64,000 nt of DNA from Roseateles depolymerans (GCF_003387155.1 NZ_QUMT01000007.1:88912-152911), one strand, 5' to 3'. Positions 17,718-35,310 are shown, counted from the first letter of the stretch. Numbers and translations: made by a program. The notes: generated by a model from the letters alone, not told the origin.

Positions 17718-17744
17718 GCATCGCGCGGGGCGCTTGTCGGTTGT

Positions 17745-17797
17745 CCCCCTTTAGCTGAACTTTTTAGGCGCCCGCAAGCCGGACAAATCGGCGCCGG
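17745..17797 (-). ncRNA. Candidate SAM-II riboswitch in the metX leader
   Basis: Minus-strand RNA GCCGAUUUGUCCGGCUUGCGGGCGCCUAAAAAGUUCAGCUAAAGG contains the SAM-II hallmark blocks CGAUUU, GGCUUG and AAAAAG..GCUAAAG as recalled from memory of the family. Not verified with a covariance model. Confidence 0.4.
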
Positions 17798-17838
17798 TAA
17801 AAAGTATACCCGGGCGCTGCGGTGCTGCGGGAGGGGCC

Positions 17839-18513
17839 TCAGCGGTGGGGAGCCGAATGGTGCATCACCTGACCCAGGGAATGAGCGCCGGGCGCGTAGG
17901 CGGACATGGCCGCGCCCACGATCATCAGGAACACGGCCGTGCCGATGAAGGGCCAGAGGGTGCGGCGGAAGGCGCTGGCGATCCAGTGCCGGCGGTCCTG
18001 CTTGCGCAGGCGGCGCAGCAGCACATAGGACAGGGCCCCGTCGAGCAGGACTTCGGCAAACAGCACCGGGGCGATGTAGACGATGTAGAGCGACGCCACC
18101 GCGATGCCAACCGCCAGGGCGATGACCACCAGGGGAATGGTGAACTCATCGGCATCGGTGACGGCTTCGGCCGCGTCCTTGACGGCTCCCAGCGAGGAGC
18201 CGCCCGGAACCTCCGTTGGCGCCGACGGCCCGTCGAAACTGCCGGAGGCCCCGCCTCCCCCGAAGTCCCCGCCACCGCCGCTGAAGTCGGCAAAGCCGGA
18301 GCTGCGGCCGGGCAGCAGGTCGGTGAGGTCGGGGGCGTCGAGGTAGTCCTGCGCATTGCTCCTCAGCCAGAGCCAGATGAGGAACAGGAAAAAGACATAG
18401 GCACAGGCCAGGGCCAGCGGATACCGCAGCGCCATCGCGTCCACGCCCAGATGCAGCAGCACAAAGGACGACAGCAGGCCGAAACCGCCGGTGAGCGAGA
18501 CCAGCAGGATCAT
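17839..18513 (-). CDS. Hypothetical integral membrane protein (4 predicted TM helices, internal Gly-rich linker)
   Basis: From ATG 18513: MILLVSLTGGFGLLSSFVLLHLGVDAMALRYPLALACAYVFFLFLIWLWL...GGGGDFGGGGASGSFDG...IPLVVIALAVGIAVASLYIVYIAPVLF. The ORF-track upstream extension overlaps the + gene at 18728 and is not protein-like. Confidence 0.55.
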   Translation of the reverse strand: MILLVSLTGGFGLLSSFVLLHLGVDAMALRYPLALACAYVFFLFLIWLWLRSNAQDYLDAPDLTDLLPGRSSGFADFSGGGGDFGGGGASGSFDGPSAPTEVPGGSSLGAVKDAAEAVTDADEFTIPLVVIALAVGIAVASLYIVYIAPVLFAEVLLDGALSYVLLRRLRKQDRRHWIASAFRRTLWPFIGTAVFLMIVGAAMSAYAPGAHSLGQVMHHSAPHR

Positions 18514-18727
18514 CTGCAGGCGGGGGAAGGAATCCCGGACGAGGCGCTCTTTCAGGAGTTCAACGGCGTGGGCGCGGCGGGAGGCGGGAGTGGGTCGCAA
18601 GATCAACGGCGAGTGGCAGGTGGAAGGGCGGGCCGGCAGATGACTTTGGTGATGGGACGCCGTCCCCGTTTTTCCGACACCATGGCATAAATTTCTCCCC
18701 AACCGGCATTGAAGTGAAGAGGCTTTC

Positions 18728-19399
18728 GTGAAGAAGTGGTGTCTGCTGTCCCTACTGCCTCTGTTGTGCCTCACCCCCACGGCCCAGGCGGCGCAGCACG
18801 CCGAATTGGGATGCCAGCGCCTGCGCATTGACCTGGACCCAGCGCTCACCGAGGAAGCGGTGGAGCGCGAGTGGCAAAGCGGCGAGCCTCGCAAGGAGCG
18901 TCCGGCCTCGTTGCAGTGGGTCGGGTGCGACGGCCAGGTGCTGTCGCAACTGCCGCTGGCCGCGCCATTGGCCCGGCTGGATCCTCGCCCGCTGCGGGGC
19001 GCCTCCCATCCGACCTTCCTGGTGTCGGCCGACCTCACGCAGGAAGCCGGCAGCTACAACGGGCCCTTGACCACCGCGATGGAGGTGGTGTCGAACCGCT
19101 TGCAAGTGGTCATGGTGCGACCGGCCGGCGGCAAGGGGCGGACCGTCCCCCTCCAGCTGACCCAGACCTTGAAGTCCTCGTGGAAGCGGGTGGATGACGG
19201 CCAGGGGGAAGCGCTGCTGGCCGTGCGCAGCCAGCCGTCGGAGGGACGCTTCACCACGACGTTCTCTCGCTATGACCTGAGCCGTGGCCACTGGCGCGTC
19301 ACCTCGCGGACCCAGCAGGGCCTGTGGGAGTCGGACGCCGACTTCCCGGCGGACACGGCCTTTCCAGCGTCTCCCCGACCCGCTGCCGCCGACCGGTAA
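18728..19399 (+). CDS. Hypothetical secreted protein (signal peptide MKKWCLLSLLPLLCLTPTAQAA)
   Basis: GTG start preceded by GAAGAGG Shine-Dalgarno. High GC3 throughout. 223 aa. No recognisable domain. Confidence 0.6.
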   Translation: MKKWCLLSLLPLLCLTPTAQAAQHAELGCQRLRIDLDPALTEEAVEREWQSGEPRKERPASLQWVGCDGQVLSQLPLAAPLARLDPRPLRGASHPTFLVSADLTQEAGSYNGPLTTAMEVVSNRLQVVMVRPAGGKGRTVPLQLTQTLKSSWKRVDDGQGEALLAVRSQPSEGRFTTTFSRYDLSRGHWRVTSRTQQGLWESDADFPADTAFPASPRPAAADR

Positions 19400-19487: not shown

Positions 19488-20615
19488 ATGCCACTGAATG
19501 CCGCTTCGCGCGAAAAAGGCATCGGCCTGGCGCTCTCCGGCGGCGGCTTCCGTGCCGTGCTGTTCCATGTCGGCGTGCTGTGGCGGCTCAATGAGCTCGG
19601 CATCCTGGGCCGGCTGGATCGGGTCTCCAGCATCTCCGGCGGCTCCATCACCCTGGGTGTGGTCGCCACCCGCTGGAGCCAACTCGCGTTCGACGGCGAG
19701 CAGCGCGCGCAGAGGTTCGACGCCGAAGTGGTGCAGCCCTTGCGCGACTTCTGCAGCCGCAACATCGACGTGAGTTCGGTCATCACCGGTGCGCTGAACC
19801 CGTTCCGCTCCGCTGGCGACGTCGTCGCCCAGGCCTACCGCAAGCATCTCGGGCTGGGTGTCTCCCTGCAGACCCTGCCCGACCACCCGCGCTTCGTCTT
19901 CAACGCCACCAACTACGCCACCGGCGTCAGCTTCCGCTTCTCCAAACCCTTTGCCGGCGACTACCGCATCGGCCTCATCCCCAACCCGGGCTTTGACGTC
20001 GCCACCGCGGTCTGCTGCTCCAGCGCCTTCCCGCCGGTCCTCGGCCCGATCGAACTGGAAGTGAAACCGGAAGACTTCACCCGGGTTGAAGGGGCCGACC
20101 TGTATGACGAGATCGACTTCCGTCGCCGCCTTCCGCTGGGGGATGGCGGGGTCTACGACAACCTGGGCCTGGAAACCGTCTGGGGACGGTACGAGGACAT
20201 CCTGGTCAGCGATGCCGGCAAGCCCTTCGACATCGATGCAGGCGTGGGCACCGTGGCTCCGCGGCAGTTGCTGCGGACCATGGACATCGGACTGAACCAG
20301 GCCCTGGCCCTGCGCAAGCGGATGCTTATCGCCGCCTATGAGCGCGGAGACGCCCGCGGTGCATTCTGGGCCATCAACGGCAATCCCGCCGACTATCCGG
20401 CCATGGAGCTGCCCGGCCTGCCGGTGGCTGCGGAGCGCATCAAGGACCTTGCCGCCATCCGCACCCGGCTGGACCGGTTCAAGGAGCAGGAGCAGTGCGA
20501 ACTCATCAACTGGGGCTACGCCATCAGCGATGTCGCGATCCGCTCCCGCGCATCGCACCTGGCGTTCCGGACGCAGGCGCCGGCATGGCCGTATCCAGGC
20601 CACGCGCTCGGCTGA
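19488..20615 (+). CDS. Patatin-like phospholipase (PNPLA family)
   Basis: From ATG 19488 (AGGAGA Shine-Dalgarno): MPLNAASREKGIGLALSGGGFRAVLFHVGVLWRL...SSISGGSITLG. Oxyanion GGGFR motif and catalytic GxSxG (SGGS), with a DGG motif later. Confidence 0.85.
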   Translation: MPLNAASREKGIGLALSGGGFRAVLFHVGVLWRLNELGILGRLDRVSSISGGSITLGVVATRWSQLAFDGEQRAQRFDAEVVQPLRDFCSRNIDVSSVITGALNPFRSAGDVVAQAYRKHLGLGVSLQTLPDHPRFVFNATNYATGVSFRFSKPFAGDYRIGLIPNPGFDVATAVCCSSAFPPVLGPIELEVKPEDFTRVEGADLYDEIDFRRRLPLGDGGVYDNLGLETVWGRYEDILVSDAGKPFDIDAGVGTVAPRQLLRTMDIGLNQALALRKRMLIAAYERGDARGAFWAINGNPADYPAMELPGLPVAAERIKDLAAIRTRLDRFKEQEQCELINWGYAISDVAIRSRASHLAFRTQAPAWPYPGHALG

Positions 20616-20618
20616 GGC

Positions 20619-20716
20619 TGCACGACGCGCCACGGCACTGCACTGCACTGCACGGCACGGCACGGCACGGCGCAGTACAGCACGGCACGGCGCGGCACGA
20701 CACGACACGACACGAC
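20619..20716. repeat. Pentanucleotide microsatellite, ~20 degenerate units of GCACG/GCACT/ACACG, between patatin and MBL genes
   Basis: ...gcact gcact gcact gcacg gcacg gcacg gcacg ... acacg acacg acacg... seen directly. Confidence 0.7.
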
Positions 20717-20760
20717 CATGAGCCAAGGCACAAGCATGGCCCCGCGTACGAAGCACCGCC

Positions 20761-22035
20761 ATGGCTGACATCTTCCGCCTCGAACTGCTGCCGGCCCTGC
20801 ACGGCGACTGCCTGCTGCTGGAGTACGGCGACCCCGACCACCCCCACCGCGTCCTGATCGACGGCGGCCCGATCGGCGCCTACCCGGCCCTGTCCAGTCG
20901 CCTCGACGCCCTCCCCAGCGGCCAGCGGGACTTCGAGCTGCTGGTCATCACCCATGTGGACGCCGACCACATCGAGGGATGCCTCAAGCTGCTGAATCAT
21001 CCCGAACTGGCCACCTTCAAGGACATCTGGTTCAACGGCTGGCCGCATGTGGGCCAGCAGCTGTCCGAGCCGGTGGGCACGGACTATGCGCTCGGCGCGC
21101 CCCTGCCGCCGGGCCAGCGCAGTGCCATGCAGGGCATGGAAATCAGCGTGCGCATCGACAATCGCTCATGGAATGCTGCCTTCCGGGGCGCCCCGGTGTT
21201 TGTGCCTGCCGCAGGGCCGTTGCCGGTGCGAGAGCTGCCGGGTGGCCTGCGGCTGACGCTGCTGTCGCCCCGCAAAGTGGAACTCGAGAAGCTGCGCACC
21301 GCCTATCTGAAGGCCCTGGAGGCCGCCGAGATTGCGCCCGAGGACGTGCATGCACTCGCCAGGCGGCTGGACATGAAGGCCGCATTCCGTGGCGTGGGAG
21401 CGCGGCTGCGACCGCGGTTCGAGCAGATCCTGGACAGCGCCGCGCTGGCCGCCGGGCCGATGGACAAGGCCGTTGCCAATGGGTCGAGCATTGCGCTGGT
21501 GGCCGAGTACCAGGGGCGACGCGTCGCGCTGCTCGGAGACGCGCATGCGCCGACGCTGACCGCGTCGCTGGCTCGGTTTGCCACGGGCTCGAGGGGTGGG
21601 GGGGTCGGCGTTGCTGATGACGATGCGGCTTTCGGTCTGGGTAACGGTACGGGTCGCGCCACGGGTAGCGCCACGGGTAGCGCCACGAGCCGACGGTCAC
21701 GCGTGCGCTTCGACGCCATCAAGCTCGCACACCACGGCTCCGCCGGCAACCTGGACGAGTCCTTCCTCGACAGCGTGGACTGCGACACCTGGCTGGTCTC
21801 CACCAATGGCCAGCTGTTCAGCCATCCCGATGCGGCCGCGCTCCATGCCATCGTGCGTCGCAAGCCAGGCGCGACGCTGGTCTTCAACTACCGCTCCGAA
21901 TTCACCGCCCCATGGGACGACCCCCAACTGCGCGACGCCCATGGCCACACCACGGTCTACCCGGAAGATGCCGACGGCGGCGTGGTGATGGATCTTCTCT
22001 CCGGCACCCCGGTCAGGCGCGAAACTCAGGAGTGA
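20761..22035 (+). CDS. MBL-fold metallo-hydrolase, ComEC-C-terminal-domain-like
   Basis: LLLEYGD.DHPHRVLIDGGP...LVITHVDADHIEG (HxHxDH-type motif) and IKLAHHGSAGN...LVSTNG resemble the ComEC-type MBL domain. Internal 12-bp tandem repeat (GSATGSAT) at ~21652-21690. Confidence 0.8.
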   Translation: MADIFRLELLPALHGDCLLLEYGDPDHPHRVLIDGGPIGAYPALSSRLDALPSGQRDFELLVITHVDADHIEGCLKLLNHPELATFKDIWFNGWPHVGQQLSEPVGTDYALGAPLPPGQRSAMQGMEISVRIDNRSWNAAFRGAPVFVPAAGPLPVRELPGGLRLTLLSPRKVELEKLRTAYLKALEAAEIAPEDVHALARRLDMKAAFRGVGARLRPRFEQILDSAALAAGPMDKAVANGSSIALVAEYQGRRVALLGDAHAPTLTASLARFATGSRGGGVGVADDDAAFGLGNGTGRATGSATGSATSRRSRVRFDAIKLAHHGSAGNLDESFLDSVDCDTWLVSTNGQLFSHPDAAALHAIVRRKPGATLVFNYRSEFTAPWDDPQLRDAHGHTTVYPEDADGGVVMDLLSGTPVRRETQE

Positions 22036-23533
22036 CCAGCATCGCGGAGGCCCAGGCGTTGTCCCGGTCCCGGAAGCGCCGGTAGATGCGGCGGCGCGCC
22101 AGCCCGAAGGCTGCCCCCAGCGACTGGCTGCGCAGCAGCATCTGGTAGAACTGCCGCGCCTGGATGGCCGCGGTGCGGTCGTTGACCCGGCAGCGGTAGC
22201 CCAGCACCGCATGAATGCCGGCCGCTGCCGCCAGCGACGCAAAGCCGGAGTTGCCGCTCTCGCAGCTGCTCAGGTAGACGAAGCGCGCCGACCGCATGTA
22301 GCTCACCACGTCGCCGAAGTCGATGCACTCCGGCGCGTCCGGAGGGCCGACGAAGAGGAAGCCGGTGCCGCCGTTCTGTTCCGCTCCCAAGGGCTGGTAG
22401 TAGGTGTGGCCGGCAAAGTGGATCAGGTCCCAGTTGCCGGACCGCAGGGCCGCTTCCAGGGCGCCGCGTGTCACCGGTTCATTCAGGCCCAGCATCTGGA
22501 CGTTGCGGGCCAGGAACAGCGGCTGTCCGGTACGGGGCGAGACGGTCGTGAGCCAGCGCCGCACCCGGTTGCATTCGATCCGCACGAGCTGCAGCGGATC
22601 GAGCTTGGTCATGCCGCCGGCCAGCTTGTCGCTGAAGACGGTGCCGTGGGTGTCGGCGCAGATCACCAGCGCGCGCCGGGCCATGGGGGAGCCCGCGAAC
22701 AGGTCGGCCGACGGATCGGCATCCGCGCCCTGCAAGCGGCGCGCCACCGAGGACGCCCGTGCCAGCCAGGGTTCGGGCAGCGGCGACGGATCGAAGACGG
22801 ATTCGAGCATCAGCGGATAGCAGTCGCTGGACACCTCGAAGATGAGCTGCTCCGGCAGCGCCGCAGCCGCCGGGCCCAACTGCTCGACCGCCTTTGCGTG
22901 GGCAAACTTGCGCTGCAGTTCAAAGGTCGGGTTGTCCTCGCACAGGGCTGTTCGAATGCTCTTGCCGATGCCGGAGAACGCCGTGTACCAGTCCGGACGC
23001 AGCAGATCCGTCACCCACAGGCAGGAGGCTGCCGCGCTGATGGCCAGGGGCCCGTCGCCTCGGAAATTGAAGCCGACGCCCTTCATGACGAAGCTCCAGT
23101 CCCTGGGCCGGGCGGTGATCCGGATCTGCAACGCGGGCTCCACCGCGCGACCGGGTCGGAGCAGGTCCAGCGCGAAGGCCCCGGCAGTGGTCGGGTCGCT
23201 GAACAGCGTCAGGTCCTGCACCTGCCTGGCCTCGCGCACCAGATCCGACGTCAGGGCCGGTGCCAGCAGCATCATGGGGGCGGTGGTCAGGAGACGCGCC
23301 TGATGGCAGAACGCCAGTCCGCCGTCCTCCGTCACGACGGCGCCCGCATCGGCGGCGAGCTGGCTGCCCACGATGAGGAAGTCCACGGCCTGCATCTGCA
23401 GCAACTCCAGCGCCGTCTCGGCATTGCTTTCATGCTGCACCGTGCGAGCGCCCATCTGCCGAAGCTGCTTCTTGATCAGCTCACCGTCCACCTCGGCCTG
23501 CAGCCGATTCAACACCAACAGGAAGTCAGCCAT
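22013..23533 (-). CDS. CHAT-domain (caspase-like) peptidase with an N-terminal receiver (REC)-like domain
   Basis: From ATG 23533: MADFLLVLNRLQAEVDGELIKKQLRQMGARTVQHESNAETALELLQMQAVDFLIVGS (CheY-like fold). C-terminal LIHFAGHTYY...FVYLSSCESG is the CHAT catalytic His/Cys dyad. 3' end overlaps the MBL gene 3' end by 23 nt. Confidence 0.8.
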   Translation of the reverse strand: MADFLLVLNRLQAEVDGELIKKQLRQMGARTVQHESNAETALELLQMQAVDFLIVGSQLAADAGAVVTEDGGLAFCHQARLLTTAPMMLLAPALTSDLVREARQVQDLTLFSDPTTAGAFALDLLRPGRAVEPALQIRITARPRDWSFVMKGVGFNFRGDGPLAISAAASCLWVTDLLRPDWYTAFSGIGKSIRTALCEDNPTFELQRKFAHAKAVEQLGPAAAALPEQLIFEVSSDCYPLMLESVFDPSPLPEPWLARASSVARRLQGADADPSADLFAGSPMARRALVICADTHGTVFSDKLAGGMTKLDPLQLVRIECNRVRRWLTTVSPRTGQPLFLARNVQMLGLNEPVTRGALEAALRSGNWDLIHFAGHTYYQPLGAEQNGGTGFLFVGPPDAPECIDFGDVVSYMRSARFVYLSSCESGNSGFASLAAAAGIHAVLGYRCRVNDRTAAIQARQFYQMLLRSQSLGAAFGLARRRIYRRFRDRDNAWASAMLVTPEFRA

Positions 23534-26111
23534 GGGTCCCCCCGCGCGGAAATCCGAGCACGAACTCGGTGACGTCGTCCGGCAGCGCATTCACCTTGAA
23601 GCTGCCGTTCTGGCCCTTCATGAGCCGGGAGATCAAGGGATGGGCCAGGCGGATGTCGGCCTGTGCGGCTTCCAGGCTGCCAAACCGGTTGCCGCGGCGG
23701 CGGCCCGGCGGCATCTTGCCCTGCAGCCGCAGGAACACGGTCTGGTCATCCGGCACCAGCGTCAGCAGAACCTTCCCCGTCTCCGGCGCGGCGCGCAGCA
23801 GGCCCGACAACAGGCTCTCCACCACGATATGCAGCTGGGTGTGGTCCGCCTCGATTTCCACCACCTGGTCGAAGGTCTGCGGCTGGACCTTGGCGCGCTC
23901 CGTCACGGTCAGGCCTGCAAGCAATGCATGCAGTTCGCTGTCCAGCCGGATGGTGCAGAGCTGGCGGGAGCGGTTCCTGGCCTCACGGTTGTACATGGCC
24001 AGCCGTGTGAAGGCATGCTTGACGCGGCCCAGTTGCCGCAGCACCGAGACGAGATCCGTCGTCAAGGCGGCAGCGTCAGCGGCATCAGCGGCGTCGGCGG
24101 ACCCGGCACGATGGGCCGTGGGGCTCATGGACGCCTCGATCTGTCGCTCGAACCACGCCATCGCCAGGCTCAGCGGCGCCTGGGTCTCCACCGCCAGCTC
24201 ATACGCGGTTTGCTCCAGGAACTCCAGCTGCACCGATCGCCGGATCGGCGCCAGATCCCTCGCGACGAAGACATGGCCGCCCAGGCGCTCCGGAAAGTCA
24301 CGACGGGTGACAAAGACCGATCTCGAGGACGCCGGCGCGTGCATGCCATCGACCCCTGCGAGCGAGGACTCTGAACCATGCGCTTGAAGGGCGACGGGGT
24401 CGGCAAACGCGGGGGAGGCTTGGGAACTTGCGGCAGCTGCAGAACTGGCCGAAGTGGCGGAAGCGCCCGGCGCGATGCGGACGGTGAGTTCTCCGATGCG
24501 CTCCCCCGCCTCGGTGCCGTCGAGCAAGGCCTCCAGCGGGCGCGGATCCTCGAAGTACTCCAGCAGGCTCTTGCCGATCAGGGCCGACCGGTTGCAGTCG
24601 AACAGCATCTCGGCCGCCCGGTTGACGCGGCGGATCCGCAGCCGGGCATCGGTGGCGATGATCGGGTCGGAGGCGTTGTCCACGCATTCAGCGAGCAGCG
24701 TGAGGTCGCTGATGCGCTCCATCGCGCCCGCAAGCTCCTGCGCGATGTCGGTGAGCTGGCGCACATGCTCGCGGGAGAACGCACTGATCCGCGGGTCGTC
24801 GACGTTGATGATGAAGCGCACCCGTTCCCCGTCGGAAAACACAATGGGCACCGCCAGCTCCGAGCGAATGGACTCGCCGTCCGGCGTTTCGATGTAGTCG
24901 GGGTCCTGCCGGACGTCCGGGACCTTTTGCGGCTGCAAGGTCCGCACCACCCGGCCCAGCACGCCTTCGTCAACATGCTGCTGGTAGTCGCCCCAGGACG
25001 CACCCGTGTCGATGGCCAGGCCGTCGTCCCCGCGCCGCGCCGAAGCCACCCGCACGACCTTCTCCCGAGCACTGTCGATCCGGAACAGGGACACCCGGCT
25101 CCAGTCGAAAATCTCCACCAGCGCATCGGCCAGGCAGCGGCAGGCCCCCTGGATATCGACGCAGCGGTTCAGGTCCCGGAACATGCGCAGTTGCCGCTGA
25201 CTGCGTGCCCGCTCGGAAAAGTCCAGGCTGCACAGCACCGCCTCGACCAGCGGCAGCTGATTGAACTGCGCCAGGTGCGTCTCGTCGTAGGCATCGCGGG
25301 TGCGGCTGAGCAGGGTCATGATGGCGACGGTCCGCTTTCGGTCCCCTTCGCCCCGCGTGATGCGCCGCCACATGCTCGTCTTCAGGTTCATGGCGGCCAT
25401 CTGGCGGCAGATCGGCTCCTCGGCCATGCTGGACCACGGCGGATTGCTCATCACCTGCTCGAAGTCATGCACGCCCCCCTCGGTCGCTTCCATGAAGGCG
25501 CGCTGATCGCCGTCCAGCGCGTACCAGGCCGTGGGCACCTGCTGCTCGAAGGGCGGGTAGTTGAAGACGATCTCGAACTCCCAGGCATCGCGGTCCTCCA
25601 CGACGCGGGAGACGAACATCAGGTCAAAGGGCAGCTCCCGATGCAAGGCCTGCGCCACCAGCGGCAGCAAGGACTCATGTCCGGCGTGCCGCAGCGTGAT
25701 GGCGCGCAGGTCGTCGCCGAGCGCCTGGTACTGGAGGCTGCGAAAGAACCCGAGCGAGCCGACCACCGCGTCGTGCTCGTCCATCACAGGCAGGCCGGTG
25801 ACTTCCACCGCCACCTGCCGGCCCGGGTCATCCTGCCGCGTCAGCGTGACGCGGTAGGCGCCGAGCTCCCCCTGCCGACGGTGGCGTGTTTCTTCCGCCA
25901 GCACCCGGCCCGCTTCGCCGGCGAACACCTGGTCCAGGCGCAGGTCTTGAACCTCCTTCACCCCGCACATCGCCAGCGCCGCCGCATTGGCATAGATGAC
26001 GTGGTTGGACAGGTCGCGCTGGATGACGGCGATGCGGGACCGGTCGAAGACCTCCCGTCTCATCGGTCCCCAGGCGGTTGAACCGGCAGGTTCGCGGGCG
26101 GGGTGGTCCAT
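23526..26111 (-). CDS. Multi-domain PAS/GAF sensor protein with a C-terminal HisKA_2/HWE-like kinase and HATPase-like region
   Basis: GGGAGG Shine-Dalgarno before ATG 26111. Several PAS and GAF-like blocks. C-terminal LGRVKHAFTRLAMYN (HWE/HisKA_2-like box) and GNRFGSLEAAQ...GSFKVNALPDDVTEFVLGFP (ATPase lid). Stop overlaps the CHAT gene start (co-operonic). Confidence 0.75.
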   Translation of the reverse strand: MDHPAREPAGSTAWGPMRREVFDRSRIAVIQRDLSNHVIYANAAALAMCGVKEVQDLRLDQVFAGEAGRVLAEETRHRRQGELGAYRVTLTRQDDPGRQVAVEVTGLPVMDEHDAVVGSLGFFRSLQYQALGDDLRAITLRHAGHESLLPLVAQALHRELPFDLMFVSRVVEDRDAWEFEIVFNYPPFEQQVPTAWYALDGDQRAFMEATEGGVHDFEQVMSNPPWSSMAEEPICRQMAAMNLKTSMWRRITRGEGDRKRTVAIMTLLSRTRDAYDETHLAQFNQLPLVEAVLCSLDFSERARSQRQLRMFRDLNRCVDIQGACRCLADALVEIFDWSRVSLFRIDSAREKVVRVASARRGDDGLAIDTGASWGDYQQHVDEGVLGRVVRTLQPQKVPDVRQDPDYIETPDGESIRSELAVPIVFSDGERVRFIINVDDPRISAFSREHVRQLTDIAQELAGAMERISDLTLLAECVDNASDPIIATDARLRIRRVNRAAEMLFDCNRSALIGKSLLEYFEDPRPLEALLDGTEAGERIGELTVRIAPGASATSASSAAAASSQASPAFADPVALQAHGSESSLAGVDGMHAPASSRSVFVTRRDFPERLGGHVFVARDLAPIRRSVQLEFLEQTAYELAVETQAPLSLAMAWFERQIEASMSPTAHRAGSADAADAADAAALTTDLVSVLRQLGRVKHAFTRLAMYNREARNRSRQLCTIRLDSELHALLAGLTVTERAKVQPQTFDQVVEIEADHTQLHIVVESLLSGLLRAAPETGKVLLTLVPDDQTVFLRLQGKMPPGRRRGNRFGSLEAAQADIRLAHPLISRLMKGQNGSFKVNALPDDVTEFVLGFPRGGTHG

Positions 26112-26264: not shown

Positions 26265-26312
26265 TGCAAAAGGAGGACTGGCCGGGGTGCTGGCCCCGCC
26301 AGCCCCATCAGC

Positions 26313-30690: not shown

Positions 30691-35310
<4,620 letters not shown>

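Follow-up and report, generated by a model that had tools for sequence, protein, structure and literature searches.

A Mobile Cassette of Roseateles depolymerans Predicted to Couple a PAS/GAF Pseudo-Kinase and a CHAT Protease to a Gated Pro-Nuclease

A Four-Gene Block in Roseateles depolymerans

The window considered here is a stretch of 64,000 nucleotides (nt) from Roseateles depolymerans (GCF_003387155.1 NZ_QUMT01000007.1:88912-152911), with a guanine-cytosine (GC) content of ~68%, in which four neighboring genes code for a patatin-like phospholipase, a hydrolase of the metallo-beta-lactamase (MBL) fold, a CHAT protease preceded by a receiver-like domain and a PAS/GAF sensor. According to our analyses, this block is probably a mobile protease/pro-nuclease system akin to the published canu (caspase-nuclease) loci, most likely serving abortive infection or regulated cell death. 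The four genes and the block that carries them are the following:

19488-20615, + strand: patatin-like phospholipase, 375 amino acids (aa), putative accessory second effector
20761-22035, + strand: MBL-fold hydrolase of the ComEC/CanC type, 424 aa, predicted protease-gated pro-DNase
22013-23533, - strand: predicted pseudo-receiver/CHAT (clan CD, caspase-like) protease, 506 aa
23526-26111, - strand: cytoplasmic PAS/GAF sensor, 861 aa
19351-26299, no strand: approximate inserted block, ~6.9 kb, delimited by the blastn homology breaks against genomes with an empty site

All four open reading frames (ORFs) described in an earlier note on this DNA were recovered by ORF calling and translation, and the ATG starts chosen there fit the lengths and N-termini of the homologues. 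The 23-nt overlap that it announced between the 3' ends of the MBL and CHAT genes is also real (22013..22035). On the other strand, the stop codon of the sensor gene overlaps the start of the CHAT gene by 8 nt, an arrangement (4–8 nt) that holds throughout the homologous loci compared. As for the domains named in that note, hidden Markov models (HMMs) uphold a part of them, i.e., Patatin, CHAT, PAS and GAF, while MBL and the receiver domain stay sub-threshold and the kinase domains are not matched at all.

The MBL Protein as a Predicted Gated Pro-Nuclease

ComEC-like MBL proteins have been described as “gated” pro-nucleases, in which two disordered insertions block the active site until a co-encoded protease cuts each loop and thereby releases an indiscriminate DNase (Tuck et al., Science 2025; PMC12799240). 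Cleavage was mapped after I118 and I218 in HamM and at I134 and I234 in Avs1a, and the same study described the canu loci (KaeCanABC), with sites at G104 and G189. This protease-unlocked nuclease design was shown in late 2025 (November) to protect bacteria from viruses, and the legend of supplementary Fig. S2 mentions clades of nucleases that are linked to proteases of the caspase/CHAT and subtilase families (PMC12799240).

The MBL protein of the window lies below the Pfam cut-offs (19.6 vs 22.7 and 18.3 vs 27). When the defense models of PADLOC v2 (2023), along with NCBIfam, were run on all four proteins, it was the only one to match PADLOC effector models, i.e., LmuA(MBL) (2e-57), Avs1a (3e-32) and the DRT-associated RTasMBL (9e-31); the sensor, the CHAT protein and the patatin gave no match at E<=0.1. 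Its orthologues reach 1e-65 on the PADLOC LmuA model over its full length. Moreover, in BLASTP comparisons with the reference sequences of Table S1 of PMC12799240, KaeCanC was the best of the references (29.6% identity over 406 columns, E=1.9e-52), ahead of PflHamM (E=1.4e-23) and EpiAvs1a (E=1.8e-16). Matches to ComEC structures in the PDB are weak. The features of the protein on which our interpretation leans are the following:

20953-20970, + strand: metal motif H65-V-D67-A-D69-H70 (HxDxDH, ComEC-type), conserved in 120/120 homologues
21118-21123, + strand: predicted cleavage site 1, R120-S121, at the end of a hypervariable loop (aa ~96-120)
21388-21393, + strand: predicted cleavage site 2, R210-G211, at the start of a hypervariable loop (aa ~211-230)
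21583-21696, + strand: low-complexity insertion of 38 aa rich in Gly/Ser/Thr/Ala (aa 275-312), before the conserved HHGS motif

The residues of the metal site (H14, D16, H65, D67, D69, H70, N240, D260, H262, H324, H325, H355, D357) are kept in 116–120 of the 120 homologues. R120 is invariant (120/120), is followed by S, G or A, and closes the most variable and gap-rich segment of the alignment; R210 is found in 118 of the same 120 sequences, with F or Y before it and G, A or S after it, and opens the second most variable segment. In the MAFFT alignment with the references, R120 occupies the very column of the mapped P1 residues of HamM (I118) and Avs1a (I134), the L103-G104 pair of CanC aligning with R120-S121, and R210 is 3–7 columns away from CanC G189 and HamM I218. 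A conserved arginine next to a small residue in each of two variable loops is the signature that a pro-nuclease should display if an Arg-specific protease opens its gates, which is what we predict for this protein. The 38-aa insertion is restricted to the R. depolymerans clade, being gapped in all other homologues, and could represent a third, lineage-specific loop.

A CHAT Protease Behind a Predicted Pseudo-Kinase and Pseudo-Receiver

Both products of the minus-strand operon combine well-preserved modules with modules that seem to have lost their chemistry, as listed below (the limits of the C-terminal sensor domains are those of the structural model):

22262-22408, - strand: CHAT catalytic dyad, His376 (IHFAGH) and Cys424 (LSSCES)
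23159-23533, - strand: predicted N-terminal pseudo-receiver of the CHAT protein (aa 1-125), (beta/alpha)5 fold
23544-24251, - strand: predicted pseudo-histidine-kinase module of the sensor (aa 621-856)
Sensor aa 16-125: PAS
Sensor aa 148-285: GAF-like
Sensor aa 339-439: GAF
Sensor aa 484-619: PAS, with a disordered insert (548-594)
Sensor aa 621-706: two-helix DHp-like hairpin
Sensor aa 719-856: alpha/beta CA-like domain

The CHAT domain clearly passes the Pfam threshold (73 bits vs 24), and its His-Cys dyad is invariant in 20 of 20 diverse family members, as well as in 150–152 of 160 wider relatives, the rest being gaps. By structure comparison, the fold of the protein is closest to SAVED-CHAT and metacaspase. 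Metacaspases cleave after Arg or Lys, a preference that fits the predicted sites at R120 and R210.

Upstream of the protease, the AlphaFold2 model (predicted local distance difference test, pLDDT, 73.9) folds aa 1-125 into a classical (beta/alpha)5 domain, on which the Response_reg profile scores 14.8 bits only, below its threshold of 30.2. A profile alignment to ArlR places Gly56 at the position of the acceptor Asp. The Lys is replaced by Asp113. In the 20 diverse members, the acceptor position is S, G, A or T, never Asp, and the Lys position is D, V or I; the acidic pair is absent from the close CHAT clade. At E<=1e-30, an exhaustive profile search recovered a wider family of receiver-like+CHAT proteins, which form 253 clusters at 50% identity and, with few exceptions, match over their full length of ~500 aa. 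There, the acceptor position is occupied by 42 His, 18 Gly, 17 Asp and 15 Ser (of ~137), and the canonical DLxxxDxxLP motif is kept in 17 of these ~137 distant relatives, suggesting that true response regulators of the REC-CHAT type were at the origin of this architecture.

At 100% identity, the sensor has a counterpart among the NCBI proteins of R. depolymerans. In the sensor, PAS and GAF domains pass Pfam, whereas HisKA, HWE and HATPase_c do not match even at E<=10, so that the “HWE-like” label of the earlier note has no HMM support. The AlphaFold2 model (pLDDT 80.3) nevertheless ends in a DHp-like hairpin and a CA-like domain, and a profile of this C-terminal module yields weak matches to the DHp+CA of ThkA, HprS and VicK (E 0.035–0.06). 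We therefore judge the histidine kinase fold (DHp+CA) and the receiver fold to be present in the sensor and in the CHAT N-terminus, respectively. The weak kinase matches align the H-box AHEIRNP with AVETQAP(L) in the sensor, the His being replaced by Val641. Among 18 sensors, this position is V, I, M or A in all, the N-box Asn has become V, A, G, E or T, the G1 Asp has become L, F or M, and the G2 glycines are absent. With both the phospho-accepting His and every ATP-binding box missing on one side (18/18), and the acceptor Asp (20/20) and the Lys lost on the other, the pair is, as far as sequences tell, a pseudo-kinase facing a pseudo-receiver, and the phospho-relay sensor envisioned in the earlier note is not borne out.

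The best Foldseek matches of the sensor are phytochromes (E 1e-22) and PAS histidine kinases, albeit with a TM-score of ~0.2 only. Hence, the likeness to phytochromes is one of domain order and is no evidence of light sensing; PAS_2 and PHY have no Pfam match in the sensor, and no bilin-binding motif was recognized by eye in the GAF sequence. We considered a phytochrome identity of the sensor and did not retain it.

A Conserved Core with Exchangeable Accessories

CHAT homologues were traced to their contigs, a scan of metagenomes added 27 loci and MBL homologues still more, the gene arrangement being mapped by tblastn across loci. In each of the 30 loci in which the sensor-CHAT operon and the MBL gene coexist, the two converge tail-to-tail, even though the identity of the CHAT protein drops from 79% to 30% and the flanking genes are different each time. 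The spacing between the two convergent genes stays within -44 to +23 nt (the upper bound comes from corrected overlaps), and their 3' ends overlap by 4–23 nt in most of the 30 loci, so that the two mRNAs would share complementary 3' ends. A few rows listing an overlap of “56 nt” are too high, tblastn having read past the stop codon; according to the ORF list, the overlap in locus L020 is 17 nt. Conversely, in every context examined, MBL genes of this clade (to ~40% identity) had the sensor-CHAT pair as neighbors. The co-occurrence that the earlier note asked for is thus that of a conserved, co-inherited unit, from which the patatin is often missing.

Indeed, only about one locus in two combines the MBL gene with the patatin. 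L014, L027 and L064 have none, and the place of the patatin is taken by a second, different MBL and a further protein in L020, L021, L024 and L028, whereas in L063 these two occur together with the patatin. Since the patatin is absent or swapped in many loci, the core consists of the sensor, the CHAT protein and the MBL protein, with swappable accessories, among which the patatin is frequent but dispensable or replaceable. In locus L006 (7560-12738), an S8 subtilase (PADLOC subtilase 2.6e-15) comes after the sensor-CHAT pair in the same orientation, and neither MBL nor patatin is encoded within 10 kb, the subtilase replacing both effectors; this variant may form a protease-to-protease cascade.

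The patatin of the window passes Pfam (56.7 bits vs 27.7; 4.7e-15) and has its motifs in order, i.e., the oxyanion motif SGGGFR (aa 17-22), Ser50 in S-I-S-G-G and Asp219 in GDGGVYDN, all conserved in 11 orthologues, the first Gly of GxSxG being a Ser. Structurally, it weakly matches PlpD (5fqu). It has no match among the PADLOC phospholipases, for which the distant L026 orthologue alone gives a weak hit (2e-5).

Some loci deserve a separate mention. The second MBL belongs to the distant clade (30–35% CHAT identity), is 535–678 aa long, with a Lys-rich N-terminus and a weak PADLOC LmuA match (1e-16), and its partner protein is 389–677 aa long. The loci with a second MBL for which coordinates are available are:

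L020, 6806-8374
L024, 4085-6858
L028, 1899-3935
L063, 13265-16917

The GC content of the distant clade (30–45% identity) is 59–66%. In L018 (4035-7751), the patatin-MBL pair has two candidate effectors as neighbors, a PLDc_2 protein (593 aa) and a protein of 616 aa that weakly matches papain-like peptidases (Peptidase_C1). A convergent gene of 246 aa in L008 was first taken as a new effector, then rejected, as it codes for the C-terminal remainder of an MBL from which ~77 codons are missing, those of HxDxDH among them; L008 (9423-10344) is therefore a decayed copy of the cassette with a shortened MBL. Another decayed copy is found in L007 (7058-9447; 1-6708), where the sensor is split into two ORFs; this metagenomic cassette adjoins rve integrase, AlpA and DUF5906 primase-like genes.

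An Insertion Next to sppA

Whether the block is inserted was examined by scanning our genome collection for SppA and by comparing the window with loci L036 and L038 using blastn. Two genomes in which SppA is 96% identical and the surroundings are the same, R. terrae CECT 7247 and a metagenome-assembled genome (MAG) of an uncultured Roseateles, lack the four genes. DNA homology to these empty sites stops at window position 26300, i.e., 13 nt past the sppA stop codon, and resumes at 19350; the alignments are too diverged for terminal repeats or clean junctions to be defined. In more distant Roseateles and in Mitsuaria, sppA directly adjoins metX. In Roseateles sp. So40a, the sppA-metX site is empty and a copy of the cassette lies elsewhere, and UC29_93 also has it at another site. 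From these comparisons of sequences, the block qualifies as a mobile cassette inserted relative to close relatives. The earlier note had placed it between metXW and sppA; the insertion itself stands, but the true site extends from sppA to two small unannotated genes that precede metX.

Locus L037 (a MAG labelled Rubrivivax sp.) has the cassette at the same site (L037 12628-19006). DNA identity to the window is 88–91% in the flanks vs 80–84% in the cassette. At the protein level, identity amounts to 80–87% for the cassette vs 96–97% for the flanking SppA and MetX; either a faster evolution of the cassette or its replacement through recombination would account for the difference.

Proposed Mechanism and Alternative Explanations

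If the block is indeed a canu-like protease/pro-nuclease system, its operation could be pictured as follows. The cytoplasmic PAS-GAF-GAF-PAS protein would sense a small-molecule or protein cue. Its C-terminal module, which, judging by sequence, keeps a dimeric DHp/CA fold but can neither bind ATP nor accept phosphate, would dock the dead receiver domain fused to CHAT; the coupled translation of the sensor and CHAT genes points to a stoichiometric complex. A signal-induced rearrangement or oligomerization, by analogy with SAVED-CHAT and HamA, would then turn on the Cys-His protease, which, judging from the homology to mapped sites, would cut both gating loops of the MBL pro-nuclease, after R120 and R210. 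Once unlocked, the MBL protein would degrade DNA indiscriminately, as expected from the biochemistry of HamM, Avs1a and CanC. The patatin lipase would act as an optional second executioner by attacking membranes, and DNase and lipase together would arrest or kill the cell.

A defense role is suggested by the relatives of the proteins and by the population-genetic behavior of the cassette: the closest characterized relatives of the MBL, the patchy presence and the effector swapping lead us to read the block as a conflict system. Similarly, the effector logic put forward in the earlier note (lipase, MBL, caspase-like protease) does point to a conflict or cell-death system. More tentatively, one may imagine an apoptosis-like cascade, possible but rather doubtful in this complete form, in which a phytochrome-style sensor without kinase chemistry would exploit a fossil kinase-receiver interface to activate a caspase-like protease allosterically, cleavage after Arg unlocking a DNase and possibly a lipase or a second protease, with a small molecule or a cellular state as the trigger rather than a phage protein or nucleic acid.

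Several observations weigh against a canu-like defense system. PAS/GAF sensors are typical of metabolic and environmental signaling, not of known phage sensing. No copies of the cassette were found in the plasmid, phage or viral-contig collections searched, and its neighborhoods consist mostly of housekeeping genes rather than of obvious defense islands. On the protein side, we infer the occlusion of the active site by the two MBL loops from the alignment, and no gating loops are evident in the patatin (11 orthologues). With respect to canu proper, the CHAT protein has no sequence similarity to KaeCanA (BLASTP E=4) and CanB is absent, the best hit of KaeCanB to the four proteins being at E=0.9. 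Finally, the nuclease gene is convergent with the protease gene (30/30), unlike the co-directional order of all characterized pairs.

Some of these points also fit a non-immune stress or developmental switch, in which an environmental, redox or metabolite cue would trigger the proteolysis that releases DNase and lipase, for autolysis, release of extracellular DNA, nutrient scavenging or population control, irrespective of phages. In its favor, the sensor is built like environmental sensors of the phytochrome type, housekeeping genes surround the loci, the phage and plasmid collections searched contain no copies, and the family is frequently met in Burkholderiales from soil and freshwater as well as in metagenomes. 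However, the closest characterized relatives of the MBL are all anti-phage effectors (PMC12799240), patchy presence, differing insertion sites and effector swapping are hallmarks of conflict systems, and the L037 cassette is more diverged than its flanks. For these reasons, we hold a non-immune stress or autolysis role to be unlikely, although it is a serious rival.

The two remaining alternatives are much less credible. One would see the block as independent neighbors, i.e., a PAS/GAF-CHAT signaling pair next to a patatin-MBL degradative pair, the MBL being constitutively active or working on a substrate other than DNA. It is true that the two units are transcribed separately and convergently, that the patatin-MBL operon has its own orientation and that the Pfam scores of the MBL are sub-threshold, but the association of the MBL clade (to ~40% identity) with the sensor-CHAT pair in every context examined, the tail-to-tail spacing held within -44 to +23 nt and the invariant arginines in hypervariable loops at known cleavage positions make such a coincidence very unlikely. 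The other is a genuine two-component phosphorelay, in which the PAS/GAF histidine kinase would phosphorylate the receiver domain to activate CHAT. Although DHp+CA-like and receiver-like folds, the translational coupling of the two genes and the DLxxxDxxLP acceptor motif kept by 17 of ~137 distant REC-CHAT relatives would agree with it, the replacement of the H-box His (18/18), the missing N-box Asn, G1 Asp and G2 glycines, an acceptor position that is always G, S, A or T (20/20) with a Lys turned into D, V or I, the lack of any Pfam match to HisKA or HATPase_c and the sub-threshold Response_reg render phosphotransfer extremely improbable.

Comparison with Known Systems

The earlier note did not recognize the four genes as a named system and, in fact, PADLOC v2 names none for the set; yet, the MBL and protease pair probably falls into the published class of protease-activated gated pro-nucleases (PMC12799240). 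In our literature search, no paper was found to describe REC-CHAT proteins or this four-gene combination, nor did any follow-up on canu emerge beyond Tuck et al.

Like canu, the cassette has an MBL homologous to CanC, with the same metal motifs and two predicted insertion loops at the same positions, each featuring a conserved residue at a putative cleavage site, and its partner is a clan-CD Cys-His protease. Unlike canu, this protease is a CHAT with a pseudo-receiver, whereas CanA is a MALT1-like caspase with an Ig fold, the loops carry Arg and a small residue instead of a hydrophobic residue and Gly, and the locus adds an 861-aa PAS/GAF pseudo-kinase sensor and a patatin co-effector. Given the lack of similarity to CanA and of CanB, we therefore do not regard it as a canonical canu, even if it seems to work on what looks like the same principle. 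Hachiman (HamMAB), AVAST type 1 (Avs1a/b), Lamassu and DRT share the homologous pro-nuclease family, R120 falling in the HamM I118/Avs1a I134 column, but they rely on a trypsin-like protease rather than CHAT, with Ile instead of the predicted Arg at P1 and a different gene order, and their helicase, STAND, SMC or reverse transcriptase sensors have no counterpart here.

In type III-B CRISPR, a proteolytic cascade leading from SAVED-CHAT to PCaspase was reportedly described by Steens et al. in 2024. Its CHAT protease (PDB 8tl0) is activated via a ligand-sensing N-terminal domain and oligomerization, and the downstream S8 protease of L006 likewise suggests a protease-to-protease cascade; in contrast, our locus has no SAVED, no CRISPR-Cas and no source of cyclic oligoadenylate, and uses a separate sensor protein that would act through a pseudo-receiver. 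In CBASS, CapV and other patatin effectors are, like ours, patatin-fold phospholipases with an intact Ser-Asp dyad inside a conflict-type cassette, but no cyclase or nucleotide signal is present here. With two-component systems and Detocs, the cassette has in common the folds and the gene order of a sensor histidine kinase followed by a receiver-effector, a logic that is that of Detocs DtcA and DtcC, whereas the phosphotransfer residues are missing on both partners and PADLOC returns no Detocs match.

Plant phytochromes end in a degenerate histidine kinase-related domain (HKRD). Together with the FrzS receiver and bacterial pseudo-receivers (PMC12632262), this HKRD is a precedent for the pseudo-kinase/pseudo-receiver pair, all the more as the top whole-chain matches of the sensor are phytochromes, from which it differs by the lack of PAS_2 and PHY Pfam matches and a TM-score of ~0.2. 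A recent review calls phosphate-free signaling by pseudo-kinases and pseudo-receivers an open question (PMC12632262).

The pairing of nuclease and protease as a principle, like the fact that some nuclease clades are associated with CHAT, had already been published in 2025; what is new here is the PAS/GAF pseudo-kinase and pseudo-receiver module, the convergent layout, the Arg-type predicted sites, the accessories (patatin, second MBL, PLD, subtilase) and the family size. Were our interpretation correct, the principle of protease-activated pro-nucleases, known from Hachiman, AVAST, Lamassu, DRT and canu, would extend to a large uncharacterized family of at least 250 receiver-like+CHAT clusters at 50% identity and at least 120 cognate MBL clusters, placed under an upstream sensor wholly different from the known ones. 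It offers two precise predicted cleavage sites, R120-S and R210-G, and would provide a defined model for phosphate-free signaling by such pairs. It would also mean that Arg-specific CHAT proteases can drive multi-effector death programs (DNase and lipase, second MBL, PLD or subtilase). Should the cascade outlined above hold in full, protease-nuclease immunity would gain a new class of sensing, directed at infection or stress, and the cassette would exemplify how nature can turn a two-component pair into a switch based on protein-protein contacts only.

Other Features of the Locus

A scan of the locus for promoters and terminators gave counts not above those of shuffled controls. The cassette is bordered by metW, metX and a SAM-II riboswitch on one side and by sppA on the other, and the following features were noted in its vicinity:

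17735-17804, - strand: SAM-II riboswitch (Rfam RF00521 SAM_alpha) in the metX leader, 36.2 bits vs a gathering score of 36
17839-18600, - strand: multi-pass membrane protein with a Gly-rich loop and no Pfam match, between metX and the cassette
18728-19399, + strand: signal-peptide protein without Pfam match, between metX and the cassette
30691-34911, - strand: ORF of 1406 aa, downstream of a GNAT gene

The gene pair on the metX side (17839-18600 and 18728-19399) is present in R. terrae and close MAGs and absent from Roseateles sp. YR242, So40a and Mitsuaria, in which sppA abuts metX. The sppA-metX gap thus looks like a recurrent insertion hotspot. As for the SAM_alpha riboswitch, its host here is a betaproteobacterium, though the family name points to alphaproteobacteria.

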